64,000 nt of DNA from Myxococcota bacterium (GTDB lineage: Bacteria; Myxococcota_A; UBA9160; JAFDDA01): assembly GCA_965228475.1 (NCBI GenBank), contig OZ245817.1:4398264-4462263 (forward strand), read 5' to 3'. The notes beneath the pieces were generated by a model. It did not search any database and was not told the DNA's origin. It saw only the letters and a list, made by a program, of their open reading frames with translations. This document shows positions 1,982 to 15,369 of the stretch, piece after piece (the first letter of the stretch is position 1; each line of letters starts with the position of its first letter). Position numbers and translations under genes: made by a program.

Positions 1982-3532
1982 CTAGGCCGGGAGCGGGATG
2001 CGGATGCGGAACTCCGTCCCGCCGCCCTCGCGCTCTTCCGCCACGACGTCACCGCCAACGTTCTCCACCTGCGCTCGCACGATCGCGAGCCCGAGGCCCG
2101 TGTGGCGGTCGCGCGGGGCCGAGCCGGGCCGGTAGCTGAAGAAGCGGTCGAAGATGCGCTCGCGGTGTTCGCGCGGGATCCCGGGGCCGCGGTCGAGGAC
2201 GCGCACGACGGCGAAGTCCTCTTCGCGCGAGAGCTCGACCCGGATCCCGGCGTCGGGCGGCGAGAACCCGGCGGCGTTGTCGATGACGTTCTCGATGGCG
2301 CGCGCGATTCCGTCCGCCGGCACCGAGACCTCGACGGGCTCCTCGGGATGGACGACCTCGATGCGCCGCTCGCCGCGCGTCCGGAAGGACTCCGCCAGCC
2401 CGTCGAGGAGCGCGGCGAGATCCACGGCTTCGGGCGCTTCGGGCCAGGCGCCCGCGTCGAGACGGGAGACCTCCTGCACGCCGGCCAGCAGGAGCTCCAT
2501 GCGTGCGATCTCGCGCTGGATCATCTCGAGGAAGCGCTTGCGCTCCCCGGCGTCGTCGACCTCGGCGAGCATCTCGCTCGCGGCGCGGATGGAACCGAGC
2601 GGGTTGCGCAGCTCGTGGGAGACGTCCGAGGCGAAGGATTCGACCCAGCCGATGTGGGCGTCGAGCCTTCGCGTGAGTGCTTCGAGCGCGCGGCCGAGGT
2701 CGCCGATCTCGTCGCGCCGGTTCGAGGCGTGGAGCGGCCCGCGCAGGCGGCCGCGCGCATCGAGCAGCGAGTCGGCCTGGTTGCGCAACCGGACGAGCGG
2801 GCGCGCGATGGTCGTCGAGACGACGAGCGAGAGCACGACCGCGGCGACCAGAGAGGCGAGGAACACGCGCAGCACGTCCATGCGGAGCTGATAGAGCTTC
2901 TGGAGGATCCGGTAGGTCGATTGCGAAACCAGCACGACGCCGGTCACGTCGTCGCCGCGGCGGATCGGCAGCGCGCTGTAGAGCGTGACCGAGCGCTGGC
3001 CGCCCGAGGAGATGCGCGTCGCGGCGCCGTAGTTCCCGTTCAGGGCCGCGCGGATCTCGCGGCCCTCGAGCGGGCCGCCGCCGGTGTAGGCGTCGGCGCT
3101 CGCGTGGGGCGCTTCCGGGGGCAACAGGTACTCGCGCCACAGGCGGAACGGCAGGGCCCCCAGGCGATAGAGCAGCCCGTCCCGCGGCCCGGGAGGCCGG
3201 TTCAGGATCGGGTCGTCCGGGCGCAGCGCGCCGAGCTGGCTCGAGTCCACGAGCAGCCGCCCGGCGGCGTCGAGCACGCGCAGGCGCGCTTCAGATTCCT
3301 GGTCGAGGGCGACGAGCGTCCGACGCGCGTCCTGCTCCCCGAGCGGCGAACGGCCGGAGAGCGCTGCGGCGAGCAGACGGCCCTGGTGCACCATCGCCCG
3401 CTCCTGATCGCGCAGGAGCTGCTGCTCGTAGGTATCGAGGAAGAGGACGCCGGCCGCGGGCAGGAACACGAGCAGGACGTTGAAGGCGAGCAGGCGCACC
3501 TGGATGCGCGCCAGGGCCTTGCGCAGCCTCAC
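1982..3532 (-). CDS. Sensor histidine kinase (dedicated-sortase-system type)
   Basis: TM / periplasmic domain / TM / HAMP layout. H-box SHELRNPLGSI and ATPase boxes (IDNAAGF, GLGLAIV). Start overlaps the RR stop by 4 nt. Confidence 0.85.
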   Translation of the reverse strand: MRLRKALARIQVRLLAFNVLLVFLPAAGVLFLDTYEQQLLRDQERAMVHQGRLLAAALSGRSPLGEQDARRTLVALDQESEARLRVLDAAGRLLVDSSQLGALRPDDPILNRPPGPRDGLLYRLGALPFRLWREYLLPPEAPHASADAYTGGGPLEGREIRAALNGNYGAATRISSGGQRSVTLYSALPIRRGDDVTGVVLVSQSTYRILQKLYQLRMDVLRVFLASLVAAVVLSLVVSTTIARPLVRLRNQADSLLDARGRLRGPLHASNRRDEIGDLGRALEALTRRLDAHIGWVESFASDVSHELRNPLGSIRAASEMLAEVDDAGERKRFLEMIQREIARMELLLAGVQEVSRLDAGAWPEAPEAVDLAALLDGLAESFRTRGERRIEVVHPEEPVEVSVPADGIARAIENVIDNAAGFSPPDAGIRVELSREEDFAVVRVLDRGPGIPREHRERIFDRFFSYRPGSAPRDRHTGLGLAIVRAQVENVGGDVVAEEREGGGTEFRIRIPLPA

Positions 3533-4269
3533 GAAGCCGGGGCCTCCCGGCCCGCTCGACGGTAGCGGTAGCCGAGCCCGTGGACGGTCTCGACGCAGGC
3601 GAAGCCCTCGGTCACGGTCTCGAACTTCCGCCGGATGCGCTTGATGTGGCTATCGATGGTGCGCTCGCTCACGAAGGCGTCGTGCGGGTAGCCCTCTTCC
3701 ATGAGCTGGCGGCGCGTCTTCACCTGGCCGGGGCGCCGCGCCAGCGCCGCGAGGATCAGGAACTCGGTGACGGTGAGGGCGACCTCCTGGCCGTCCCAGC
3801 GGGCGGTGTAGCCGTCGAGGTCGAGCACCAGTTCGTCCACTTCGACGGCGGTGCCGTCGGCGGCGGGCTCGGCGCCACGCAGCAGCGCGAGGCGGCGGAA
3901 GAGCACCTTCACGCGCGCCGTGAGCTCGCGCATCGAGAACGGCTTGCACAGGTAGTCGTCGGCCCCGAGTTCGAGGCCGAGGATGCGGTCGAGCTCCTCG
4001 TCCTTCGAGGTCAGGAAGATGATGGGCATCGTCTCCGAGAGCGTGCGGAGCTTGCGGCAGAGTTCGAGGCCGTCCATGCGGGGCATCAGGATGTCGAGCA
4101 CGGCCACGTCCGGGAGGGCGCCGTTCGAGAAGCTCTCCCACGCGGCGGCGCCGTCCGCATGGCTCTCCACGACGTAGCCTTCGCGATCGAGGGCGAAGCC
4201 CACGCTCTCGCGAATGCTCTGCTCGTCGTCGACCACCGCGACGCGTCCGAGGGCGGGTTCCTTGGCCAT
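3529..4269 (-). CDS. OmpR-family response regulator
   Basis: Receiver domain (VAVVDDEQSI...VLDILMPRMDG...LTSK) plus a winged-helix output domain (...TVHGLGYRY). Confidence 0.9.
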   Translation of the reverse strand: MAKEPALGRVAVVDDEQSIRESVGFALDREGYVVESHADGAAAWESFSNGALPDVAVLDILMPRMDGLELCRKLRTLSETMPIIFLTSKDEELDRILGLELGADDYLCKPFSMRELTARVKVLFRRLALLRGAEPAADGTAVEVDELVLDLDGYTARWDGQEVALTVTEFLILAALARRPGQVKTRRQLMEEGYPHDAFVSERTIDSHIKRIRRKFETVTEGFACVETVHGLGYRYRRAGREAPAS

Positions 4270-4473
4270 GCCGCGAGGCTACCGCCTCCCCGTCCGTGCG
4301 GGAAGCGGGCCGCCGGCGCGTGCGGTGGATTGCCCCAGACTCGCCACATCTTTCCCCGTCATCGCCCCGGGAGGCGGCCGCCCCTGCCCTCTCCTGCTGC
4401 TTTCCTGCAGCCGTGCCGCGCTCGGTCGCCGACCACGGAGCCGCGGATGAGAGGCAACAGGGAAGGAGCGGGC

Positions 4474-6570
4474 ATGACGTCGTGGCGGGAGAAGGCCGGG
4501 GGATGCGGGGGTCGCGGGTGTTCGGGGTGCGGGGGCCCCCGGCGCTGGCGGCGGACCGTCGAGGCCTTCCTGCTCGTGGCGATGGCATCGCTCGCTCCTT
4601 CCCGAACGCTCCTGGCCCAGACGGTGCCGGACGCCACCTCCGCCGAAACGCCGCCGGGAGGTCACCTGCTGCTGCGCGCGGCGGATGGCAGCGAGAGCGT
4701 CGCGCCGGTGCTCGAGGTCGACGTCGTCCTGCGCGTCGCGGGCATGGTGGCCCGGGGGAGCGTTTCGCAACGCTTCGCGAACCCGAGCGATCGCTGGCTC
4801 GAGGCGCTCTACGTCTTCCCGCTCCCCGAGCATGCGGCGGTCGACGGCCTGCGCATGCAGATCGGCGAGCGGCGCATCGAAGGGGAGATCCGCGAGCGCG
4901 AACAGGCGCGGCGCGTCTACGAGGCGGCGCGGGCGAACGGGCAGCGCGCTTCGCTGCTCGAGCAGCACCGGCCGAACGCCTTCACCTCGCGGGTGGCGAA
5001 CATCCCGCCCCGCTCCGAGATCCGCGTCGAGATCGATTTCCAGCAGTCCGTCGCGTACCGCGACGGGGAGTTCGACCTGCGGCTCCCCTGGATCGTGGCC
5101 CCTCGCTACTTCCCGCCGGGAGCGACGAGCGGCGAAGCGGTTGCGGACGACGCGGCGATGCTCTCCCGTGAGGCCGCGGCGGCGGCGGCGGCGGAGGGCG
5201 TGGCGCCCGACGTCGCGCTCGCGATCGATCTCGACCCCGGCGTCGCCCTCGACGCGATCGAGAGCCCGACCCACGCGCTGCGCTTCGAACACCTCGATGC
5301 CAACCGCCTGCTCGTCACCCTCGAGGACGACACCGTACCCGCGGACCGCGACTTCGTGCTCCGCTGGCGCCCGACGCCGGGCCGCCAGCCGATGGCGAGC
5401 CTCTTTCGCGAGGAGCGCGACGGGGAGCACTACCTGCTGCTCATGCTACTCCCCCCGGCCGCGTCTGAAGCGGAGGGCCCACCCGCGCGTGCGCCGGAAG
5501 CGCGGGAGATCGTCTTCGTGATCGACACCTCGGGCTCCATGGGCGGCGCCTCGATCGTGCAGGCGCGCGCGGCGCTCCGCCTCGCGATCGAACGCCTCGA
5601 ACCCCGCGACCGCTTCAACCTCATCGCGTTCGCTTCCGAAACCCGAACGCTCTTCCCGAAGTCGACCCACGCCGACCCGGGCGCCGTCGAGAGGGCTCTC
5701 GACTTCGTCGACGGCCTCGAAGCGGGCGGGGGAACCGACATGCTCCCGGCCCTGCTTGCCGCCCTGCGCGACGAACGCGGCGGGGACGGCCTGCGCCAGA
5801 TCGTCTTCGTGACCGACGGCTGCGTCGGCAACGAGGCGCAGCTCTTCTCGGCGGTCCGCGCGGGGCTCGGACGCTCGCGCCTGTTCACCGTCGGCATCGG
5901 GAGCGCACCGAACGGACACTTCATGGACGGGGCGGCGCGCTTCGGGCGCGGCGCACGGGTCTCGATCGCTTCTCCGGAGGAGGTCGGAACGAGGATGGAA
6001 GCGCTCTTCGCGAAGCTCGAGCGGCCGGCGCTGACGGAGCTCGAGATCGCGTGGCCGGACCGCACCGAGAGCTGGCCCGCGCGGCTGCCCGACCTCTACT
6101 TCGGCGAGCCGCTCGTCGTCACCGCACGCGTCTCGCGTTTCCTCGGCGACGTCCGGGTCTCCGGGATTCTCGGCGGCCGGCCGTGGGAAGCGGCGCTCCC
6201 CTTCACCCCGGGCCGCAGCGAACTCGGCATCGAGAAGCTCTTCGGGCGGCGCAAGATCGCAGCCCGCATGGATGGGCTCATCACCGGCGATTCGGAGGAA
6301 CACGTGAAGCGTGACGTCCTGGAAACCGCCCTCGAACACGGCCTCGTCTCCCGGTACACGAGCCTCGTGGCGGTCGAGCGAACGCCCGCGAGGCCGCTCG
6401 GCGAAGGGCTCGCCGAGGGCCGGGTCGCACCGGGGACGCCGGCCGGCTTCGTACTTCCCCAGGGCGCGACGCCCGCACCGCTCTGGCTCGCCTGGGCGCT
6501 GACCTCTGGCCTCGCCGGAGTCGGCTTCGCCCTGCGAGCGCGCTGGACGGCGCAACGAGAACGGCCGTGA
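4474..6570 (+). CDS. Sortase target protein with VIT and von Willebrand A domains and a C-terminal LPQGA-TM-basic sorting signal
   Basis: Start chosen at the ATG behind GGAAGGAG; the track ORF 3580..6570 has a spurious N-terminal extension across the RR gene. VIT-like N-terminus (LEALYVFPLPEHAAVDGLRMQIGERRIEGEIRERE). vWA MIDAS motif (VFVIDTSGSMGG). C-terminus reads FVLPQGATPAPLWLAWALTSGLAGVGFALRARWTAQRERP. Confidence 0.8.
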   Translation: MTSWREKAGGCGGRGCSGCGGPRRWRRTVEAFLLVAMASLAPSRTLLAQTVPDATSAETPPGGHLLLRAADGSESVAPVLEVDVVLRVAGMVARGSVSQRFANPSDRWLEALYVFPLPEHAAVDGLRMQIGERRIEGEIREREQARRVYEAARANGQRASLLEQHRPNAFTSRVANIPPRSEIRVEIDFQQSVAYRDGEFDLRLPWIVAPRYFPPGATSGEAVADDAAMLSREAAAAAAAEGVAPDVALAIDLDPGVALDAIESPTHALRFEHLDANRLLVTLEDDTVPADRDFVLRWRPTPGRQPMASLFREERDGEHYLLLMLLPPAASEAEGPPARAPEAREIVFVIDTSGSMGGASIVQARAALRLAIERLEPRDRFNLIAFASETRTLFPKSTHADPGAVERALDFVDGLEAGGGTDMLPALLAALRDERGGDGLRQIVFVTDGCVGNEAQLFSAVRAGLGRSRLFTVGIGSAPNGHFMDGAARFGRGARVSIASPEEVGTRMEALFAKLERPALTELEIAWPDRTESWPARLPDLYFGEPLVVTARVSRFLGDVRVSGILGGRPWEAALPFTPGRSELGIEKLFGRRKIAARMDGLITGDSEEHVKRDVLETALEHGLVSRYTSLVAVERTPARPLGEGLAEGRVAPGTPAGFVLPQGATPAPLWLAWALTSGLAGVGFALRARWTAQRERP

Positions 6571-7160
6571 CGGCGCGTGCCGCGGCGGCAGCGTGCGGAC
6601 TGTTCGCGGCGGTCTGCGCAGCGAACGCGCTGTGGCTTCCGGCGAAAGCCGCGCTCGCCCAGGTGCTCCTCGACGCGGCGTACCAGCGGACCCTCCTCGC
6701 CGGGAACGCCGCGCGCCCGTGGCCGTGGTCCGATGCCTGGCCGGTCGCGCGCATCGAAGCGCCGGAGCGTGGGCAGCGCTTCGTCGTCCTCTCCGATGCC
6801 TCGGGGCGCTCGCTCGCCTTTGCGCCCGGCCACCTTTCGGGAACGGCCCTTCCGGGAGGTGCCGGCACGAGCATCGTCGCCGGGCACCGCGACACGCACT
6901 TCGCGTTCCTGCGCGAGCTCGTCGCGGGGGATCTGGTGACGGTCGAAGACGCACGCGGCGGGCACCATCGCTTCCGGGTGCGGGAGACCGCCGTGGTGCA
7001 CGAACGCGACGCGCGCGTCGCGGGCGTGGGCGTCGCGGACCGGCTCGTGCTCGTGACCTGCTGGCCCTTCGACGCCGTGCGCCCCGGAACGAAGTGGCGC
7101 TACGTCGTGATCGCCGAGCGGGAGGACGCCGCGCCCGCGATCCCCTCGCGGCGCGTCTAG
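6567..7160 (+). CDS. Sortase (proteobacterial / class GN type)
   Basis: GTGA overlap with the target gene. Catalytic His context IVAGHRDTHFAFL, Cys context LVLVTCWPF, and a conserved Arg further on (TKWRYVV). Confidence 0.8.
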   Translation: MTARAAAAACGLFAAVCAANALWLPAKAALAQVLLDAAYQRTLLAGNAARPWPWSDAWPVARIEAPERGQRFVVLSDASGRSLAFAPGHLSGTALPGGAGTSIVAGHRDTHFAFLRELVAGDLVTVEDARGGHHRFRVRETAVVHERDARVAGVGVADRLVLVTCWPFDAVRPGTKWRYVVIAEREDAAPAIPSRRV

Positions 7161-8557: not shown

Positions 8558-8799
8558 CGCTCGGGTTCCCTGGGCTCGGGGCCTGAAAGACCCCGGGTTC
8601 GGGGCTAGAAAGAAGATGGGCCGAGCTTAGCCCGCCCCGCTGCAGGTGGCGTGCTGCATCGGCGGGTTCGTGGCGGCGAAGTGCGGCGGGCGGTGAATCA
8701 AACCGGAACCGGTTGCGTCCGTTCGGGTTGAACGGGAGTCGACGAAGTGGCCCCGGGACGTCCCGGCCACCCCGCTCCCGCCTTCCGGAAGGAGGATCC

Positions 8800-9300
8800 A
8801 TGGTCCCCGCTTCGACCCGCCCCTTCGGGCCCGCCGCCCGCTGGCCTTCGGCGCTGACGGCCCTCGCGCTGGCCCTCGGTCTCACGGCGTGTGTGGCCTC
8901 GGCGCCGCGAAACGTTTCAACCGCCTCGGGGCTCGCCGAGGAATCGCGCGCCGCGATCGAAGACGGCGTCCGCCTCTACGAGGCGGGCGAGTACGCCATG
9001 GCAGCGCGACGCTTCGGCGACGGCGCGAGCATGGCCGACCGCATGGGCGACGATGCCCTCGCCTGGCGCTCCGTCGCCGCCGAGTGCACGAGCTGGCTGC
9101 TCGCGCGGCTCCTGCGCGAGTTCGACGCCTGCAGCGGCCGGCTCGAGACCGCCCAGCGCCGCGCCCACGAAACGAGCGGCGGCACGAACGCCCTGATCTC
9201 CCTCGGCGCCGTCGCCGGGGGCCGCGGACAGCCCGCCGTGAACGTCCCCCGGGCCGTGCGCAGCGTCGTGCGCCACCGCCCGCAGCCGGAGGACTTCTGA
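8800..9300 (+). CDS. Lipoprotein of unknown function (TPR-like helix pair)
   Basis: ATG behind GGAAGGAGGA. Lipobox LALGLTAC. High GC3. First gene of a coupled operon. Confidence 0.6.
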   Translation: MVPASTRPFGPAARWPSALTALALALGLTACVASAPRNVSTASGLAEESRAAIEDGVRLYEAGEYAMAARRFGDGASMADRMGDDALAWRSVAAECTSWLLARLLREFDACSGRLETAQRRAHETSGGTNALISLGAVAGGRGQPAVNVPRAVRSVVRHRPQPEDF

Positions 9301-10331
9301 TGTCCCCCACGAACCGACTCCGCTCGCCCCGCGCAACGCGCCGCTCGCTTCGCACAACGCGCCGTTCGCTTCGCCGAGGAATTCCCATGCTTCACCGCAT
9401 CTCCCTGCTCGCCGTGTTCGCAGCGGCTCCGCTCGTCACCTCCCTCGCCCTGCCCGCCAGCGTCACCGCCGCTGGCCGGGAACGCGCCTCCGAACTCATC
9501 CCGGAGCTGATGGGGCGGATCCTCGAATCCCAGGAGCAGATCCGCGAGCGCGAGGGCGAGTACTCGCCGCTCATCCAGCGCTACAACGAGAAGCTCGTCG
9601 CTTCGCGCCAGGCCATCCAGGACGCCGGCTCCGACGAGGTCGCCGCCGAGGCCCTCGTCGACTACGTCGAGACCTATGCGGCCCGGCTCGAGGTCCAGGA
9701 GGAGGGGCTCGACGGGATCCGCTCCTCCCTCGTGCGCATGCGCGCCGATGCACGCGAGCTCGTGCGCGTGGCCGAGCGCTCGGGCGCCCGCGGCGAGGAA
9801 TCGCCGGACGAGCGCAAGCCGTTCTACGAAGACCAGTTCCAGGGCGTCGCCGCGGGAACCGCCGAGCTCGCCGAGCGACTCGGCCGCGAGGCGGAGATCG
9901 CCACCACGGGCTCGGTGCTCCAGGCCGCGTGGGCCGTGCACGGGGAGATGGCGATCCCCCTGCCGGAGCTCGGACCGGACAGCGCCCTCGCCTTCGCGCG
10001 ACGGGTGGAGGGGCTCTACGCCCAGTACCAGGCCCGCGCGAACCAACTGCGGACCGAACGCCGCGCGACGCGCCGGCTGCTCGACCTGCTGATCGAGCGC
10101 CAGCTCGGCCAGCGGCTCGACGCCCTGTTCGCCGGCAACGAATCCGTCGGCCTCGGCGCGCTGCTCTCCGCCGAGGGCAAGACGGAAGACTGGAACGATC
10201 TCGGCCGCGTGGTTTCGCGCGTGGTCGGCATGCCCAACTACGACGCCGATGGAGACGGACGCGACGACGCCTACGAGCGCCTCGACTTCTTCGCCCGCGG
10301 CGTCCACCGGGACGAGGAGAAGGTGCGATGA
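9300..10331 (+). CDS. Secreted coiled-coil protein of unknown function; N-terminus carries two TRRSL(R) motifs
   Basis: ATG overlaps the previous stop (TGATG). Alternative start is ATG 9387 (MLHRISLLAVFAAAPLV...VTA-AG signal peptide). The rest is Glu/Arg/Leu-rich and helical. Confidence 0.55.
   Translation: MSPTNRLRSPRATRRSLRTTRRSLRRGIPMLHRISLLAVFAAAPLVTSLALPASVTAAGRERASELIPELMGRILESQEQIREREGEYSPLIQRYNEKLVASRQAIQDAGSDEVAAEALVDYVETYAARLEVQEEGLDGIRSSLVRMRADARELVRVAERSGARGEESPDERKPFYEDQFQGVAAGTAELAERLGREAEIATTGSVLQAAWAVHGEMAIPLPELGPDSALAFARRVEGLYAQYQARANQLRTERRATRRLLDLLIERQLGQRLDALFAGNESVGLGALLSAEGKTEDWNDLGRVVSRVVGMPNYDADGDGRDDAYERLDFFARGVHRDEEKVR
9330..9371 (+). repeat. In-frame 21-nt tandem duplication (2 copies, 2 mismatches)
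   Basis: cgcgcaacgcgccgctcgctt / cgcacaacgcgccgttcgctt, encoding RATRRSL / RTTRRSL. Confidence 0.85.
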
Positions 10332-10810
10332 AGTCCTTCCAGACGAAGCTTCGGTTCTCCAAAGCGCGACGCCGTGCGCTCGGCCGCTTCACCGCGGCGG
10401 CCATGCTCGCCGGCGCGGGCCTTTTCCTCGCCGCTCCCGCCCAGGCGGACTCGTGCCGCGAGTGGCGCGTCGAGCACCACGAGTGGAAGAGCGAGGCCGT
10501 CCGCCGCTACCTCGACGGCTCGCCGGGCAAGGACCTCGACAACGCGGTCTTCGAGATGCTCCAGCGCGAGGCCTACCTGACCTCCTGCAACATGCCCGTC
10601 CGCCGGGCGCGGCAGGCGTTCGTCGGCTGGCGGCTCGTCGGGCGCGGCGCGGACGAGTACGGCCGCGCGGTGGTCGAGTCCCTGCTCGAGGAAGCGGGGA
10701 TGGACCTCACCGTGCGCAACTGGTTCGGTCCGATGCTCGGTGCTGCCGGCCCGACCGCGAGCCTCGCGGACCCCGCCTACGGCGACCCGACGGGCTCGAC
10801 CCGGCGCTAG
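10328..10810 (+). CDS. Secreted protein of unknown function
   Basis: ATGA overlap with the upstream gene. Signal peptide ...AMLAGAGLFLAAPAQA-DS. High GC3. Confidence 0.6.
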   Translation: MKSFQTKLRFSKARRRALGRFTAAAMLAGAGLFLAAPAQADSCREWRVEHHEWKSEAVRRYLDGSPGKDLDNAVFEMLQREAYLTSCNMPVRRARQAFVGWRLVGRGADEYGRAVVESLLEEAGMDLTVRNWFGPMLGAAGPTASLADPAYGDPTGSTRR

Positions 10811-10813
10811 CCG

Positions 10814-11332
10814 ATGCGCGGGACCTTCGTCGCAGCCTGTCTCGGCGTGCTCGCCGCGGCGCCGGTCGTCGCACTGGCGGTCGCCGGCGTTTCGCCCGGC
10901 GAGCTGCCGGGCGCGAGCGTCCGCGGGCTGCGCAACGAGGTCGCCTCGGTCGGCTGGGTGCTCGTCCCGCAGCTCGTGCTCGCGGTGGCGATCCTCGGCC
11001 TGGCGCTCCAGCAGGCGGTGCGCCGCGCCGCGCGGCTCGAGCGCCTGACGCCGCCGGGATGGCTCTCGCCGGCGGTCGAGTCGGCCCTGCTGCTCGGCCT
11101 GCTCGGCACGATCAGCGGCATGGTGGCCGGCTTCCTCGGAACGTCGCCGGACGCCCTCGAGCCCGGACCGCTCGTGCACGGGCTCGGCGCCGCACTGCGC
11201 AGCACCTTCGTCGGCTTCGCCATCGCCCTGGTCGGCGTCTGGCTGAAGCAGGACGAACCGAACGTCTCAAGGGAGGGGCCTCCGTTTCCGCCACACCTCT
11301 CCCCGAGCGGTCGGCCGGGGAGTCTTCCGTGA
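10814..11332 (+). CDS. MotA/TolQ/ExbB-family proton channel protein (short form, 172 aa)
   Basis: Family signature LLLGLLGTISGMVAGF followed by GLGAALRSTFVGFAIALVGVWL. Three predicted TM helices. Confidence 0.75.
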   Translation: MRGTFVAACLGVLAAAPVVALAVAGVSPGELPGASVRGLRNEVASVGWVLVPQLVLAVAILGLALQQAVRRAARLERLTPPGWLSPAVESALLLGLLGTISGMVAGFLGTSPDALEPGPLVHGLGAALRSTFVGFAIALVGVWLKQDEPNVSREGPPFPPHLSPSGRPGSLP

Positions 11333-11724
11333 GCGGAAGCTCCCCGGTCGGCTACGCGCTCTACTTCATCGACGTCCTCGCATGCCTGCTCTTCTGCATC
11401 GTGCTCACGCTGGTGGGCGCGCGTTTCTCGACGGAGACGACGGTCCTCGTCGACCTTCCGGATCTCGCGGGCTCCGCCGGCGTCGCCGCGGAACCGGATG
11501 CGCTCTCCGTGACGGTCCTCGAAGCGGACGGAACGACGCGCTTCTACCTCGAGGACGAGGCCGTGTCCTTCGAAGAGCTGCGCGAACGCCTTCGCTTCGC
11601 CGCCCCGGAGACGGTGCGCATCCGCTCCGAAGAAACGGCCCTCGCCCGGGTGATCGGGCTGGCCCATGAGTCGGGCATCGGCGACGTCGAGCTCGCCTAC
11701 GAAACGCGCGGAGGATCCCGATGA
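11329..11724 (+). CDS. ExbD/TolR-like protein
   Basis: GTGA overlap with the ExbB-like gene. One N-terminal TM helix (YFIDVLACLLFCIVLTLV), then VLVDLP... and a periplasmic alpha/beta domain, as in ExbD. Confidence 0.65.
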   Translation: MSGSSPVGYALYFIDVLACLLFCIVLTLVGARFSTETTVLVDLPDLAGSAGVAAEPDALSVTVLEADGTTRFYLEDEAVSFEELRERLRFAAPETVRIRSEETALARVIGLAHESGIGDVELAYETRGGSR

Positions 11725-12350
11725 TTCGTTTTCTCACGACCCTCGTGATCACACTCGCCCTCGCCGTGGCCGCGGCGGCCTGGTGGACCGGTGCGGACGA
11801 TCCGGAGCCCGTCGCGATCGAAACGGGTGAGGCGAGCGCCGCGCTCGAGCCCGGTCTCACGCCGGTGGAACCCGAGGCCGCGCCGTCCGTCCCTGCCCTT
11901 CCCGAGTTGGCGAGTCCGGCGAGGACGGTCCCGGACCCGAAGCCGCCCGAGCCGGCCGCCCGCGAACTCCCGCCGATCCCGCCGATCCCGGCGCCCCACT
12001 TCGAGGCGCCTCCCGTGCGGACGCTCGCGGCCATCCCGGCGCCCGAGTTTGCGCGCCCCGAGCAGGAGCCGCCCCCCGAGGCGGCCGCCGCGCTCCCCGA
12101 AGAAACGCCGCCCGTCGAGGAAACGGAGCTTCCGACCCTTCCGGCCTTCGAGACCCCCGCGCCGGGCGAGCCCACGACCATCGAGGCGATTCTCGCCGCG
12201 AACCCGGACCTCGGACCGACCGCCGAGGAAGAGCTCGAGCAGTGGGAAGAGAGCCAGAAGACGGTCGCCCTGGGGAGCGAGCACGACCGAAGTGCCTCGC
12301 GCATCCGCCGGCTGCTCGACGTCTACGAAGGGTTGCGGGGGCGCCGCTAG
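11721..12350 (+). CDS. Single-pass membrane protein with Pro-rich spacer (TonB-like architecture, no recognisable TonB C-domain)
   Basis: ATGA overlap. TM helix FLTTLVITLALAVAAAAWW, then about 140 aa rich in P/E/A. Confidence 0.6.
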   Translation: MIRFLTTLVITLALAVAAAAWWTGADDPEPVAIETGEASAALEPGLTPVEPEAAPSVPALPELASPARTVPDPKPPEPAARELPPIPPIPAPHFEAPPVRTLAAIPAPEFARPEQEPPPEAAAALPEETPPVEETELPTLPAFETPAPGEPTTIEAILAANPDLGPTAEEELEQWEESQKTVALGSEHDRSASRIRRLLDVYEGLRGRR

Positions 12351-13474
12351 TGCCGACCGATCGCGCCATCCGCTGGGCCTGTCAGCTCGTGGTCATCGTC
12401 TGGCTCGCCACCGCCCTCGGCTGGCGCGAGCTTGCGCCGCGCGAGGTGCGCGTCGCGGTGCAGCCGACCTCGGTCGAGGCCGTCGCGCTCCCGCCAGTAC
12501 CGGCCGCCGAACCCGAGGAAGAGACCGAGGCGGAGCCCGAAAACGCCGCGGCGCCCGAACCCGCTGCCCCCGAGATCGCCGAGGCGCCCGAGCCCGAACC
12601 GGCACCGCCCGAGCCGGCCGAGGCGCCCGAACCCGAGCCCGCCCCGCCCGAAGTCGCCGAAGCGCCGGTGCCGGAGGCACTTCCCGAGCCCGAACCCGAG
12701 CCCGCCCCGGTGGACGTCGCCGAGGCCCCCGAGCCCGAGCCCATCGAAGCGGCCGAGATCCCCGAGCTCGCTGCGGCGGAGGAGCCCGAGCCCCTCGAAG
12801 CGGAGCCTGCCCCCCTCGAACCGGCCGAGCTCCCCGAGGCGGACCCGGCCCCGCTCGAGGTCGCCGAAGCCCCGGCGCCCGAACCCGCGCCTACTCTAGA
12901 AGCTCCCCTCGCCGCTCCGCCCCTCCCCCTCCAGACCGTCAGCGAGGCCGACGTCGCCCGGGGCGGAACGCTGCTCACCGGGGACGAAGGCTTCCCCGTG
13001 CTCGAGAGCCGCTACGAGGCCTTCGGGAGCTTCGGCGACTACGCCCGCGCGATGCAGGCCCTCGGAGCCCGCTTCGTCGTGGTGGAGCGCCACGCCATCC
13101 TGGGAACGATCGACCCGTGGACCCTCGAGGCCGGCACCCTGGCCGACGCCGCCGCCCTCTCTCCCCGCGCCCGCGACTACGCGGGGGAGCCCGCCCTGCT
13201 CGCCGCCAGCCGCACCGTCCGTCGCCGCCACGGGAACCGGGCCGAGATCATGATGCTCGTGCCGCGCCGCATCGACGCGGCCCTCTTCGGCGGCATCACC
13301 CGGGCCCTCGAAGCGCGGGGCCGCGCACCGGGCGCCTACCGGCAGATCCTGGCCCGGTACGAACGCGGGCCGGGCGGAAGCCTCCGCCTGCGGGTCGAGG
13401 CGGCGGTCGGCAAGGATGGCCGCAAGGAACCCCTCCCGCTGCTCTTCGACCTCTCCCGGCTCGTCCGCACCTGA
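12350..13474 (+). CDS. Single-pass membrane protein with long (Pro-Glu)-rich spacer and an unassigned C-terminal domain of about 180 aa
   Basis: GTG overlapping the previous TAG (TAGTG). TM helix WACQLVVIVWLATALGW. AEAPEPEPAPPEPA-type repeats. Globular C-terminus (GFPVLESRYEAFGSFGDYARAMQALGARFVVVE...). Confidence 0.65.
   Translation: MPTDRAIRWACQLVVIVWLATALGWRELAPREVRVAVQPTSVEAVALPPVPAAEPEEETEAEPENAAAPEPAAPEIAEAPEPEPAPPEPAEAPEPEPAPPEVAEAPVPEALPEPEPEPAPVDVAEAPEPEPIEAAEIPELAAAEEPEPLEAEPAPLEPAELPEADPAPLEVAEAPAPEPAPTLEAPLAAPPLPLQTVSEADVARGGTLLTGDEGFPVLESRYEAFGSFGDYARAMQALGARFVVVERHAILGTIDPWTLEAGTLADAAALSPRARDYAGEPALLAASRTVRRRHGNRAEIMMLVPRRIDAALFGGITRALEARGRAPGAYRQILARYERGPGGSLRLRVEAAVGKDGRKEPLPLLFDLSRLVRT
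12488..12931 (+). repeat. Coding low-complexity Pro/Glu/Ala repeat, including two tandem 39-nt units at about 12581..12658
   Basis: gaggcgcccgagcccgaaccggcaccgcccgagccggcc / gaggcgcccgaacccgagcccgccccgcccgaagtcgcc encode EAPEPEPAPPEPA / EAPEPEPAPPEVA. Confidence 0.8.
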
Positions 13475-13572
13475 GGCCCCGCCGGGTTCGCATCCGCGAT
13501 GCCGGCGAGCTGCGCTTCCCCCCGGAGGCCGCTCGGTGTTAGTTTGGGCCCCTACCGTTTCAGGGGGTCCCC

Positions 13573-15369
13573 ATGGCAGCGTTCAACGGCACCGAGCAGG
13601 TCAGAAAGGTCGACAACTTCATCCAGGCCTTCCACATCATGTCCGAGGCCGTGCCCGAACGAGAGGCCCTGCGCACGTCGGACGGTCAGTCCTCGCTCTC
13701 CTGGGGCGAGGTGCGGCAGCGGGTCGACGCCATCGCCGGCGGGCTCGCGAAGCTCGGCGTCGCGCGCGGCGAGACCGTCGCCCTGATGCTCTCGAACCGG
13801 CCCGAGTTCCACCTGTGCGATCTCGCCACCATGAGTGCCGGCGGAACGCCCTTCTCGATCTACCAGACGCTCCCGCCGGAATCGATCGAGTACGTCGTGG
13901 GCGATGCGGGCGCGCGCGTCGCGATCATCGAGCGCGCCTTCTTCGAGAACTTCATGAAGGCGCGCCAGAACCTCCGGGACCTCGAGCACGTGATCGTGAT
14001 CGACGGCGAGGGCGAAGGCGGCACCCTCACGCTCACCGAGATCGAAGGTTCGAACCCCGGCTTCGACACCGCCGCCAGCGCTGCGGGCATCGGCGCCGAG
14101 GACCTCCTCACGCTGATCTACACCTCGGGCACCACGGGCCCGCCGAAGGGCGTGCAGCTCACCCACGCGAACCTGCTCGCCGGCGTGCGGATCCTCGACC
14201 AGGTGATCAACATCCCGGACGGCGCGCGCGTCATCTCCTGGCTGCCGACGGCCCACATCGCGGAGCGCGCCGCCAACTACTACATCCCGCTCGTCTTCGG
14301 GGCGACCATCACCACCCTCGACGACCCGCGCAGCATCATCAAGGTGCTGCCCGAGGTGAAGCCGAACTTCTTCTTCGCCGTGCCGCGCATCTGGGAAAAG
14401 ATGAAGGCCGGCATCGAAGCCCAGCTCGAGCAGCTGCCGGAGGAGACGGCCGCGCTCGCGAAGAAGGCCATCGAGGCCGGCATCCAGAAGGTCCGCCTCG
14501 AACAGGCCGGGCAGGAGGTTCCGGCGGAGCTCGCCGCGGTCTGCGAGCGCGCGGACGGTGAGCTCTTCGCGCGGCTCCGGGCGCTCCTCGGACTCGAGGA
14601 AGCCCGCGCCATCAACACGGGCGCCGCGCCGACGCCCGTCGAGGTGCTCGAGTTCTTCCACGCGATCGGGCTCGAGCTCGCGGAACTCTGGGGCATGTCG
14701 GAGACCTGCGGCGCCGGTACGACGAACCCGCCCGGCAAGGTGCGGCTGGGAACGGTCGGCCCGCCGGCCCCCGAGATCGAGATCAAGCTCGACGGCGACG
14801 GCGAGATCCTGATCCGCGGCCCCATCCTCATGCAGGGCTACCGCAACCTCCCGGAGAAGACCGCCGAGACCTTCACCGAGGACGGCTGGCTCCGCACCGG
14901 CGACATCGGCGAGTTCGACAGCCACGGCTACCTGAAGATCGTCGACCGCAAGAAGGAGCTGATCATCAACGCCGCGGGCAAGAACATGGCGCCCATCAAC
15001 ATCGAGGGGAAGCTCAAGGGATCGAGCCCCTTCATCGGGCAGGCCTGCGCGATCGGCGATGCGCGCCCCTACAACACGGCGCTGATCGTCCTCGATGCGG
15101 ACTACGTCCCCGCCTGGGCGGCCCAGAACGGCATCGAGGAGACTACGCTGGAGGCGCTCGCGGAGAACGAGAAGATCGTGGCCGCCGTCGAGGCGGGCGT
15201 CGCCTCGGCGAACGAGAAGCTCTCCCGCGTCGAGCAGATCAAGAAGTTCCACATCGTCCGCGGCGATTGGCTGCCGGGCGGCGACGAACTCACGCCGACC
15301 ATGAAGCTCAAGCGCAAGCCGATCGCCGAGAAGTACGCCCGCGAGATCGAGGAGCTCTACGCGAAATGA
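13573..15369 (+). CDS. AMP-dependent long-chain acyl-CoA synthetase
   Basis: AMP-binding motif LIYTSGTTGPPKGV, plus GWLRTGD and ...TPTMKLKRK. Confidence 0.9.
   Translation: MAAFNGTEQVRKVDNFIQAFHIMSEAVPEREALRTSDGQSSLSWGEVRQRVDAIAGGLAKLGVARGETVALMLSNRPEFHLCDLATMSAGGTPFSIYQTLPPESIEYVVGDAGARVAIIERAFFENFMKARQNLRDLEHVIVIDGEGEGGTLTLTEIEGSNPGFDTAASAAGIGAEDLLTLIYTSGTTGPPKGVQLTHANLLAGVRILDQVINIPDGARVISWLPTAHIAERAANYYIPLVFGATITTLDDPRSIIKVLPEVKPNFFFAVPRIWEKMKAGIEAQLEQLPEETAALAKKAIEAGIQKVRLEQAGQEVPAELAAVCERADGELFARLRALLGLEEARAINTGAAPTPVEVLEFFHAIGLELAELWGMSETCGAGTTNPPGKVRLGTVGPPAPEIEIKLDGDGEILIRGPILMQGYRNLPEKTAETFTEDGWLRTGDIGEFDSHGYLKIVDRKKELIINAAGKNMAPINIEGKLKGSSPFIGQACAIGDARPYNTALIVLDADYVPAWAAQNGIEETTLEALAENEKIVAAVEAGVASANEKLSRVEQIKKFHIVRGDWLPGGDELTPTMKLKRKPIAEKYAREIEELYAK

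Follow-up and report, generated by a model that had tools for sequence, protein, structure and literature searches.

A conserved seven-gene cassette pairing a minimal MotA/ExbB–ExbD-family motor with a predicted new-fold transducer head: a probable envelope force-transduction system in Myxococcota

Ton, Tol and Mot are the textbook routes by which double-membraned bacteria pass inner-membrane energy outward, and recent work suggests that many more such systems exist, carrying other 'heads'. Among these, the vWA-headed transducers (Williams-Jones et al., Mol Biol Evol 2025, PMC12204202) have a helix followed by a disordered Pro-rich linker and end in a head that is related to neither TonB nor TolA; encoded beside tolQ/tolR-like genes, often with a TPR gene nearby, they have no assigned function and set a published precedent for motor-linked transducers with non-TonB heads. 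Here, we analysed a window of 64,000 nucleotides (nt; the whole stretch of DNA under study) from the genome of a Myxococcota bacterium, which has a G+C content of 72% and sits on a single 5.0-Mb contig, and in it a cassette of seven tightly packed genes, g1 to g7, all on the + strand at 8800–13474. The closest published concept to this cassette is that of the non-TonB-headed 'force transducers' (PMC12204202). Because the cassette is conserved, unnamed and usually ends in a gene for a cell-wall-cutting enzyme, it probably represents an envelope machine of a new kind. We judge it reasonably likely to be an undescribed force-transduction system of the Ton/Tol class, driven by protons and probably tied to peptidoglycan remodelling, where the proton-driven function is inferred. 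The genes are arranged as follows.

8790–8795, + strand: Shine-Dalgarno-like AGGAGG, 5 nt 5′ of the g1 ATG, read from the sequence
8800–9300, + strand: g1, lipoprotein of 166 amino acids (aa) with a TPR-like helical motif and a Cys pair
9300–10331, + strand: g2, exported all-helical coiled-coil-like protein of 343 aa (314 aa from 9387)
10328–10810, + strand: g3, exported protein of 160 aa with the Cys pair C43/C87
10814–11332, + strand: g4, minimal MotA/ExbB-family subunit of 172 aa
11329–11724, + strand: g5, ExbD/TolR-family subunit of 131 aa
11721–12350, + strand: g6, single-pass protein of 209 aa
12350–13474, + strand: g7, TonB/TolA-like transducer of 374 aa

As read from the sequence, five of the six gene junctions are start/stop overlaps of 1 or 4 nt each, namely TGATG between g1 and g2 (9298–9302), ATGA between g2 and g3 (10328–10331), GTGA between g4 and g5 (11329–11332), ATGA between g5 and g6 (11721–11724) and TAGTG between g6 and g7 (12348–12352). 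The sole junction without overlap, TAG-CCG-ATG between g3 and g4 (10808–10816), leaves a gap of 3 nt. An earlier note on this DNA, made without database searches, had described seven coupled genes with five overlaps and one 3-nt gap, and our reading gave the same junctions throughout. The overlaps recur in distant loci, for example in L016 (6560/6563, 7549/7552, 8483/8486, 8911/8914, 9543/9546 and 10340/10343). Compared with the closest relative, L020, the ratio of nonsynonymous to synonymous substitution rates (dN/dS) was 0.30 for g1, 0.16 for g2, 0.32 for g3, 0.21 for g4 and 0.28 for g5, a range (0.16–0.32) comparable to the 0.27 of the adjacent acyl-CoA synthetase gene. The retention of gene order and overlaps in relatives, together with purifying selection, thus marks the cassette genes as real and constrained. 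A promoter and terminator scan returned no signal beyond shuffled expectation.

Running the Pfam, NCBIfam and PADLOC libraries on all seven cassette proteins yielded matches only for the two motor families, to which g4 and g5 belong. Both barely passed threshold: g4 scored 28.6 bits against PF01618 (MotA_ExbB; cut-off 22.9), the weakest of seven such matches genome-wide, and g5 scored 30.8 bits against PF02472 (ExbD; cut-off 25.4). The proton-carrying residues of the two families, Asp and Thr, are kept. In the family alignment, Thr99 in the LLGxLGT (LGT) motif of g4, a protein that contains LLGLLGTISGMVAGF, is invariant and the ALRSxFVGF helix near-invariant, and Asp15 in the transmembrane helix of g5 (YFIDVL) is found in 16/16 aligned sequences. 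By hydropathy, g4 has four hydrophobic segments (residues 5–23, 43–61, 91–109 and 124–144), the second and third of which are joined by a loop of ~25–30 residues at the place where ExbB and TolQ bear a cytoplasmic domain; g4 lacks this usual domain, and Escherichia coli ExbB is ~70 residues longer. The minimal ExbB/ExbD-like motor that the earlier note had proposed is thereby borne out.

The arm is encoded by g7, whose start (MPTDRAIRW) is also the one annotated in a public copy of the protein (P0127). It is built from an N-terminal transmembrane helix, a short strand-like motif, a long linker and a globular head:

12365–12421, + strand: transmembrane helix of g7, residues 6–24, with a conserved [S/C]-[Q/R/H]-x5-W motif (C-Q in the window protein)
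12440–12460, + strand: EVRVAVQ of g7, residues 31–37, an alternating beta-strand-like motif and candidate 'motor box'
12485–12931, + strand: linker of g7, residues 46–194 (~150 residues), 31% Pro, 27% Glu and 25% Ala
12932–13471, + strand: C-terminal head of g7, 180 aa (residues 195–374), with an alpha/beta fold in the AlphaFold2 (AF2) model

The helix of the window protein reads A-C-Q-L-V-V-I-V-W, and its polar position is occupied by R (16 cases), Q (11), H (10) or another residue (5) among 42 family members. Behind it, near and far g7 homologues carry (A/V)R(V/I)x(V/P)-like motifs at the place expected for a 'motor box', a beta-strand in the disordered stretch after the transducer helix, as conceived in PMC12204202. 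Relatives that fall outside the clade of the window have a visibly shorter linker. Tandem Repeats Finder reported a repeat of period 39 in 2.9 copies at 12553–12666, and imperfect 39-nt tandem units extend over 12553–12873; the greater length of the linker and these units together indicate that the window's clade has expanded the spacer.

From an alignment of 23 sequences, AF2 modelled the head with high confidence (predicted local distance difference test, pLDDT, 92.8; predicted template-modelling score, pTM, 0.86). Its invariant motifs, which include SPRARDY and VPRxxDAxLFGG, likely mark functional surfaces. In Foldseek searches of 350,542 PDB chains, the best match to the model had an E-value of 0.17, with template-modelling (TM) scores ≤0.22, and in BFVD the best E-value was 0.14; across both collections, TM was never better than 0.24. 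TonB, TolA and vWA folds were absent from the PDB fold matches, which included a few insignificant ones to TolB N-domains. A head profile run with hmmsearch against PDB sequences found nothing under an E-value of 0.5, the head had no match in Pfam, NCBIfam or PADLOC, and Pfam found no VWA match in g7. Having no counterpart in PDB, BFVD, Pfam or NCBIfam, the head is neither TonB_C nor TolA domain III, in agreement with the earlier note, which had described a C-terminal domain of ~180 aa unlike TonB_C. Within the reach of PDB-based tools, the modelled head is a new fold without a detectable relative of solved structure. We also considered whether it might be a duplicated ExbD/TolR periplasmic domain and rejected this, since comparing its profile with that of the ExbD family of the cassette showed no relation. 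The note had suggested hidden Markov model and structure searches as a check; their outcome is that families are recognised for g4 and g5 and that the head stands without relatives.

A second potential arm is encoded by g6, which has one N-terminal hydrophobic helix, then a Pro/Ala/Glu linker that evolves fast, and at its C-terminus a basic helix that is conserved (RIRRLLDVY). The gene lies between g5 and g7 in 13/13 Myxococcota-type loci examined, and in all of these its C-terminal motif, [LI][IV]RRML[AS]hY, is kept. With linkers of 24–31% Pro, 17–27% Glu and 18–25% Ala behind a single helix, g6 and g7 are the two Pro/Glu-rich single-pass anchors that had been noted from the sequence, and the Pfam scan found no PF03544 (TonB_C) match in either.

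The remaining three proteins are exported. The g1 lipobox reads LTAC, and its Cys is retained wherever the aligned pieces extend to the N-terminus; C96 and C111 are near-invariant in an alignment of 16 loci, and the TPR-like motif is LYxxGEYxxAAxxF. No Pfam match above cut-off and no OmpA-like domain was found in g1. The best-conserved accessory gene is g2, with 52–85% identity among Myxococcota-type loci. Its AF2 model shows helices of ~50 residues at moderate confidence (mean pLDDT 65); by sequence and by fold, no match was found in PDB, the fold hits being generic long-helix bundles, none of them significant, among which were coiled-coil regulators of wall hydrolases. In g3, a signal peptide precedes an aligned, conserved Cys pair (C43/C87), and no Pfam or NCBIfam family matched.

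Two starts are conceivable for g2, i.e. the coupled one at 9300 and another at 9387, right at the signal peptide. With the former, the N-terminus carries two tandem RxTRRSL units (9330–9371) ahead of the signal-peptide core. Homologues begin at the equivalent of 9387 or bear unrelated short extensions. Export of g2 may be of the Tat type, depending on which start is used. Apparent in-frame stops in g2 at two loci were dismissed as BLAST alignments running beyond the true stop.

How, then, does the cassette compare with the described systems? It shares with Ton a MotA/ExbB-family channel and an ExbD-family partner with a transmembrane Asp, encoded in one operon, as well as the plan of the arm, with N-terminal helix, Pro-rich spacer and C-terminal globular head. 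In contrast to Ton, g4 has no cytoplasmic domain, the g7 head is not TonB_C and the g7 helix has no Ser-x3-His-x6-Leu-x3-Ser (SHLS) motif; there is a second arm, g6, along with three extra exported proteins, and the cassette loci examined have no receptor gene and usually have a gene for an SLT lytic transglycosylase attached. Similarly, the motor class, arm plan, lipoprotein, coiled-coil/TPR-like periplasmic component and a plausible link to peptidoglycan processing recall Tol-Pal, whereas TolB, the OmpA-like domain of Pal and TolA domain III are missing (Pfam gave no TolB_N or OmpA match among the cassette proteins) and the gene order is different. From the MotA–MotB stator, the cassette differs in that g4 has no large cytoplasmic torque domain and g5 no OmpA-like peptidoglycan-binding domain of the MotB type, the sole Pfam match of g5 being ExbD. 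In PADLOC, g4 resembled ZorA only below threshold (E-value 0.006, 13 bits); the cassette has no matches to ZorB, ZorC/D or ZorE, which sets it apart from Zorya.

With the vWA-headed transducers, the cassette has in common the helix–linker–non-TonB-head plan of g7 and a motor linkage, which here is seen in three gene orders, but its head is not vWA, its motor subunit is minimal, SHLS is lacking and the additional genes (g1–g3, g6 and that for SLT) are others. In the same phylum, the AglRQS motor of Myxococcus gliding works with GltG and GltJ, and the cassette likewise has a Tol-like motor and two single-pass Pro-rich proteins. GltG and GltJ end in TonB_C domains, unlike g6 and g7; moreover, the cassette contains no other Glt gene, and its head was found in only 9/401 sampled genomes of the phylum. 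What is new in the cassette is the fold of the head (as modelled), the minimal channel subunit, the second arm and four partners that belong to no family.

The genome also encodes the canonical machinery, with six TonB_C proteins, four other ExbD genes and six other MotA/ExbB genes. A tolQ-tolR-tolA-tolB locus lies at 2.9998–3.0031 Mb, and the sole TolB_N match genome-wide (C1:3000715-3001020) falls beside its tolQ, tolR and tolA. Given these separate Tol and Ton genes, the cassette is an addition to them, not a replacement. That it is distinct from canonical Ton, Tol and Mot systems had been proposed in the earlier note, and this view stands, as a TonB_C or TolA domain III head, SHLS, a linked receptor, TolB and Pal are all lacking.

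With g2 as query, 17 loci were recovered from species-representative genomes. Of these, twelve bear the label of Myxococcota or delta-proteobacterial metagenome-assembled genomes (MAGs), and four (L022, L030, L035 and L036) that of Spirochaetales or Gammaproteobacteria; the latter four are probably mislabelled, as their g2 proteins are 54–62% identical to that of the window, a range into which MAGs labelled Myxococcota also fall. In many genomes, all seven genes are kept in order, at 40–85% protein identity. Seven of the nine sampled genomes with the head belong to the window's order, and the other two, with a weaker match, to another order of the same class. Most cassette hosts are known as metagenome assemblies only. 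A head profile searched against 1.84 billion representative proteins gathered 291 clusters at 50% identity, 171 of which had E-values <1e-10. In the listed members, the domain is C-terminal, and the full-length ones read start with a helix and linker; those looked up were named no more than 'hypothetical protein', and one of the more distant members is labelled Candidatus Rokubacteria.

The fetched loci span 43–75% G+C. Among the more distant is L048, on an 8.6-Mb contig where a neighbouring ThyA is closest to Lentisphaerota and Victivallales sequences; homology to the window is seen in its motor and head, and its three upstream genes agree with g1–g3 in size and order. The head is tied to a short ExbB and an ExbD in three gene orders, namely that of the window, one with an additional gene of ~125–145 aa ahead of the SLT gene (L037, L047 and L048) and a rearranged one with the motor after the head gene (L038 and L044). 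In a further variant, L049, the motor precedes three accessory genes. In curated families, defence models and the literature, we found no name or description for the cassette; the earlier note's reservation that it might be a known annotated system thus found nothing in its favour. A viral or mobile origin was rejected, given that no relatives were found on viral contigs and that the flanks are syntenic with those of close relatives.

Beyond what the earlier note had seen, the comparison brought out this conservation across phyla, the closest published concept and two kinds of linked gene. In 17 of the 22 loci with a readable neighbourhood, a gene for an SLT lytic transglycosylase follows the g7-like gene, mostly overlapping it; in three loci, the two are separated by one small gene. 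A weakly TPR-like protein of ~420 aa is encoded ahead of the cassette in seven Myxococcota-type loci, and a diverged TPR protein nearby in two further loci. This upstream protein has no homologue in the window's genome and is not of the Slam type, a candidate that we rejected since it shows no similarity to the Slam-like protein beside L049. At that locus, a gene for a TPR and SlipAM (Slam-like) outer-membrane protein (12066–13610) lies two genes 3′ of the rearranged cassette.

Further neighbours occur in individual loci. In L047 (7148–13625), the cassette and SLT gene are followed on the same strand by genes for a DUF87/TrwB-like ATPase of 763 aa and for two large proteins without family match, a neighbourhood that could point to a larger apparatus or to a mobile element. 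Directly 3′ of the cassette in L018 lies a gene for a short secretin of 281 aa with Secretin_N (11073–11918), whose homologue in the window's genome (C1:3692753-3693544, 41% identical) is far from the cassette. In L045 (10285–15267) and L048 (12356–13525), cassettes adjoin FtsW/RodA-family or dcw cell-wall synthesis genes, which may be coincidence yet would fit a wall-related role.

If the cassette is indeed a force-transduction system, g4 and g5 would form an inner-membrane motor of the 5:2 type in which proton flow exerts force. By analogy with TonB and TolA, g7 would dock on this motor through its N-terminal helix and the 'motor box' strand, and its Pro/Glu-rich rod would allow it to reach across the periplasm with the predicted alpha/beta head. 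As a second anchored arm, g6 might use its basic C-terminal helix as a docking element, and g1, g2 and the small, presumably disulfide-bonded g3 could be what the head acts on in the periplasm or at the outer membrane. The most likely job of such a machine would be to control or position, at the expense of energy, the cleavage of peptidoglycan and the remodelling of the envelope, as suggested by the translationally coupled SLT gene ending the operons of most relatives and by the TPR-like gene beginning several of them. The influence of Tol-Pal on septal wall processing offers a loose precedent (PMC7391070), and another is given by the coiled-coil regulators of wall hydrolases seen among the insignificant fold hits. 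In the window's clade, the SLT partner might be encoded elsewhere or have been dispensed with.

Several observations weigh against this picture. The peptidoglycan link is suggested by gene neighbourhood, and the SLT and TPR-like genes are absent from the cassette locus of the window itself, of its congener L002 and of L020 (upstream flank), three loci that share LOG/short-chain dehydrogenase and acyl-CoA synthetase flanks. Relocation of the SLT gene within the genome was considered and rejected, since the best match (C1:1482926-1483735) is 56% identical over the catalytic part and stands in an unrelated context, next to an L-aspartate-oxidase-like and other unrelated open reading frames (ORFs). 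The SHLS motif of TonB and TolA is not kept in the g7 helix, which has a different spacing and a Gln; with a strand-like motif at the 'motor box' site, docking may thus be analogous, not identical, to that of TonB/TolA. The cassette lacks a conserved gene for an outer-membrane protein. In L048, finally, the accessory proteins show marginal homology to g3, and none could be detected to g1 or g2.

A more far-reaching version of the same idea, which we put forward as tentative and on balance doubtful, would make the cassette a third proton-driven periplasmic force system beside Ton and Tol, in which a minimal motor, a head of new fold and a second arm gate or position a lytic transglycosylase, and which would be ancient in Myxococcota, Lentisphaerota and Rokubacteria-type lineages. 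Here, the motor would pull on a periplasmic assembly of coiled-coil protein and lipoprotein that mechanically gates SLT. Were this true, membrane energy would directly set where the cell wall is cut.

Other explanations account for parts of the data. The cassette could be a paralogue of Tol-Pal, with g1 and g2 in Pal- or CpoB-like roles, that tethers or constricts the outer membrane during division. Such a role would suit a lipoprotein with a TPR-like motif next to a coiled-coil protein, and PMC12204202 describes CpoB as a coiled-coil and TPR protein and reports it to have been a lipoprotein ancestrally; the involvement of Tol-Pal in septal peptidoglycan processing (PMC7391070) and the FtsW/RodA or dcw genes beside the two distant cassettes of L045 and L048 point the same way. 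However, g1 carries no OmpA-like domain, TolB and TolA domain III are lacking, the gene order is unlike tol-pal and a complete tolQRAB set is present elsewhere in the genome; in addition, a head found in only 9 of the 401 sampled genomes fits a core division function poorly, all of which renders a Tol-Pal paralogue unlikely. A receptor-dependent role is more improbable still. In a divergent Ton system, the g7 head would bind a TonB-dependent receptor or another outer-membrane transporter encoded elsewhere, and the cassette would power import. This would accord with the ExbB/ExbD-family pair and the TonB-like arm plan, and Ton genes are frequently unlinked from their receptors. Yet neither sequence nor fold identifies the head as TonB_C, none of the loci examined has a receptor gene, the genome already holds six TonB_C proteins and canonical motors, and the four extra conserved periplasmic proteins and the SLT gene would be left unexplained.

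The SLT gene could instead mean that the cassette is part of a larger trans-envelope apparatus, serving secretion, DNA transfer or surface motility, for which it would supply the energy and pierce the wall, with SLT making the opening needed for assembly in the manner of VirB1- or FlgJ-type enzymes. Machines of this sort typically come with SLT genes, and the ATPase and large proteins of L047, the secretin of L018 and the likeness to Agl-Glt drawn in the earlier note (a motor with two TonB-like proteins) would all be in keeping with this. The ATPase and the secretin are each confined to one locus, however, and the seven-gene core and SLT recur without them; the window has neither, and across the loci examined the cassette shows no conserved gene for an outer-membrane protein, pilin, secretin or barrel, so we rate this reading as quite unlikely. 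Finally, a genome of 72% G+C yields many long spurious ORFs on both strands, and the Pfam scores of g4 and g5 lie just past cut-off, as might be expected of chance ORFs or a decayed, functionless remnant. The chance that this is so is negligible: conservation of the seven-gene order at 40–85% protein identity, dN/dS values of 0.16–0.32, invariant functional residues and the confident head model refute it. Set against these alternatives, an undescribed Ton/Tol-class system with a probable link to the cell wall accounts best for what was found.

A functional SLT link would mean that proton-motive force is coupled directly to the cutting of peptidoglycan, something at which Tol-Pal only hints. 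The cassette offers a well-defined case for study, combining a confidently modelled head without relatives, two different arms and a recurrent association with a cell-wall enzyme. As the smallest MotA/ExbB-type subunit in this analysis, g4 is useful for probing the purpose of the cytoplasmic domain, and naming the 291-cluster family would improve the annotation of many metagenome genomes.

Upstream of the cassette, the window encodes a histidine kinase, a VIT-vWA sortase substrate with its sortase, a short-chain dehydrogenase and a LOG-family protein; downstream follow an acyl-CoA synthetase, an amidase and a PEP-CTERM protein. In line with the earlier note, no TonB-dependent receptor, Pal or TolB gene adjoins the cassette in these flanks. 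The histidine kinase, VIT-vWA protein and subsequent sortase (1982–7160) make up a dedicated sortase set of the proteobacterial type, which is unrelated to the cassette and not conserved beside it in relatives. Elsewhere in the genome, two MotA/ExbB, two ExbD and two TonB_C matches fall within 8 kb (C1:1860237-1867984), which could represent a multi-gene Ton or gliding-type cluster.

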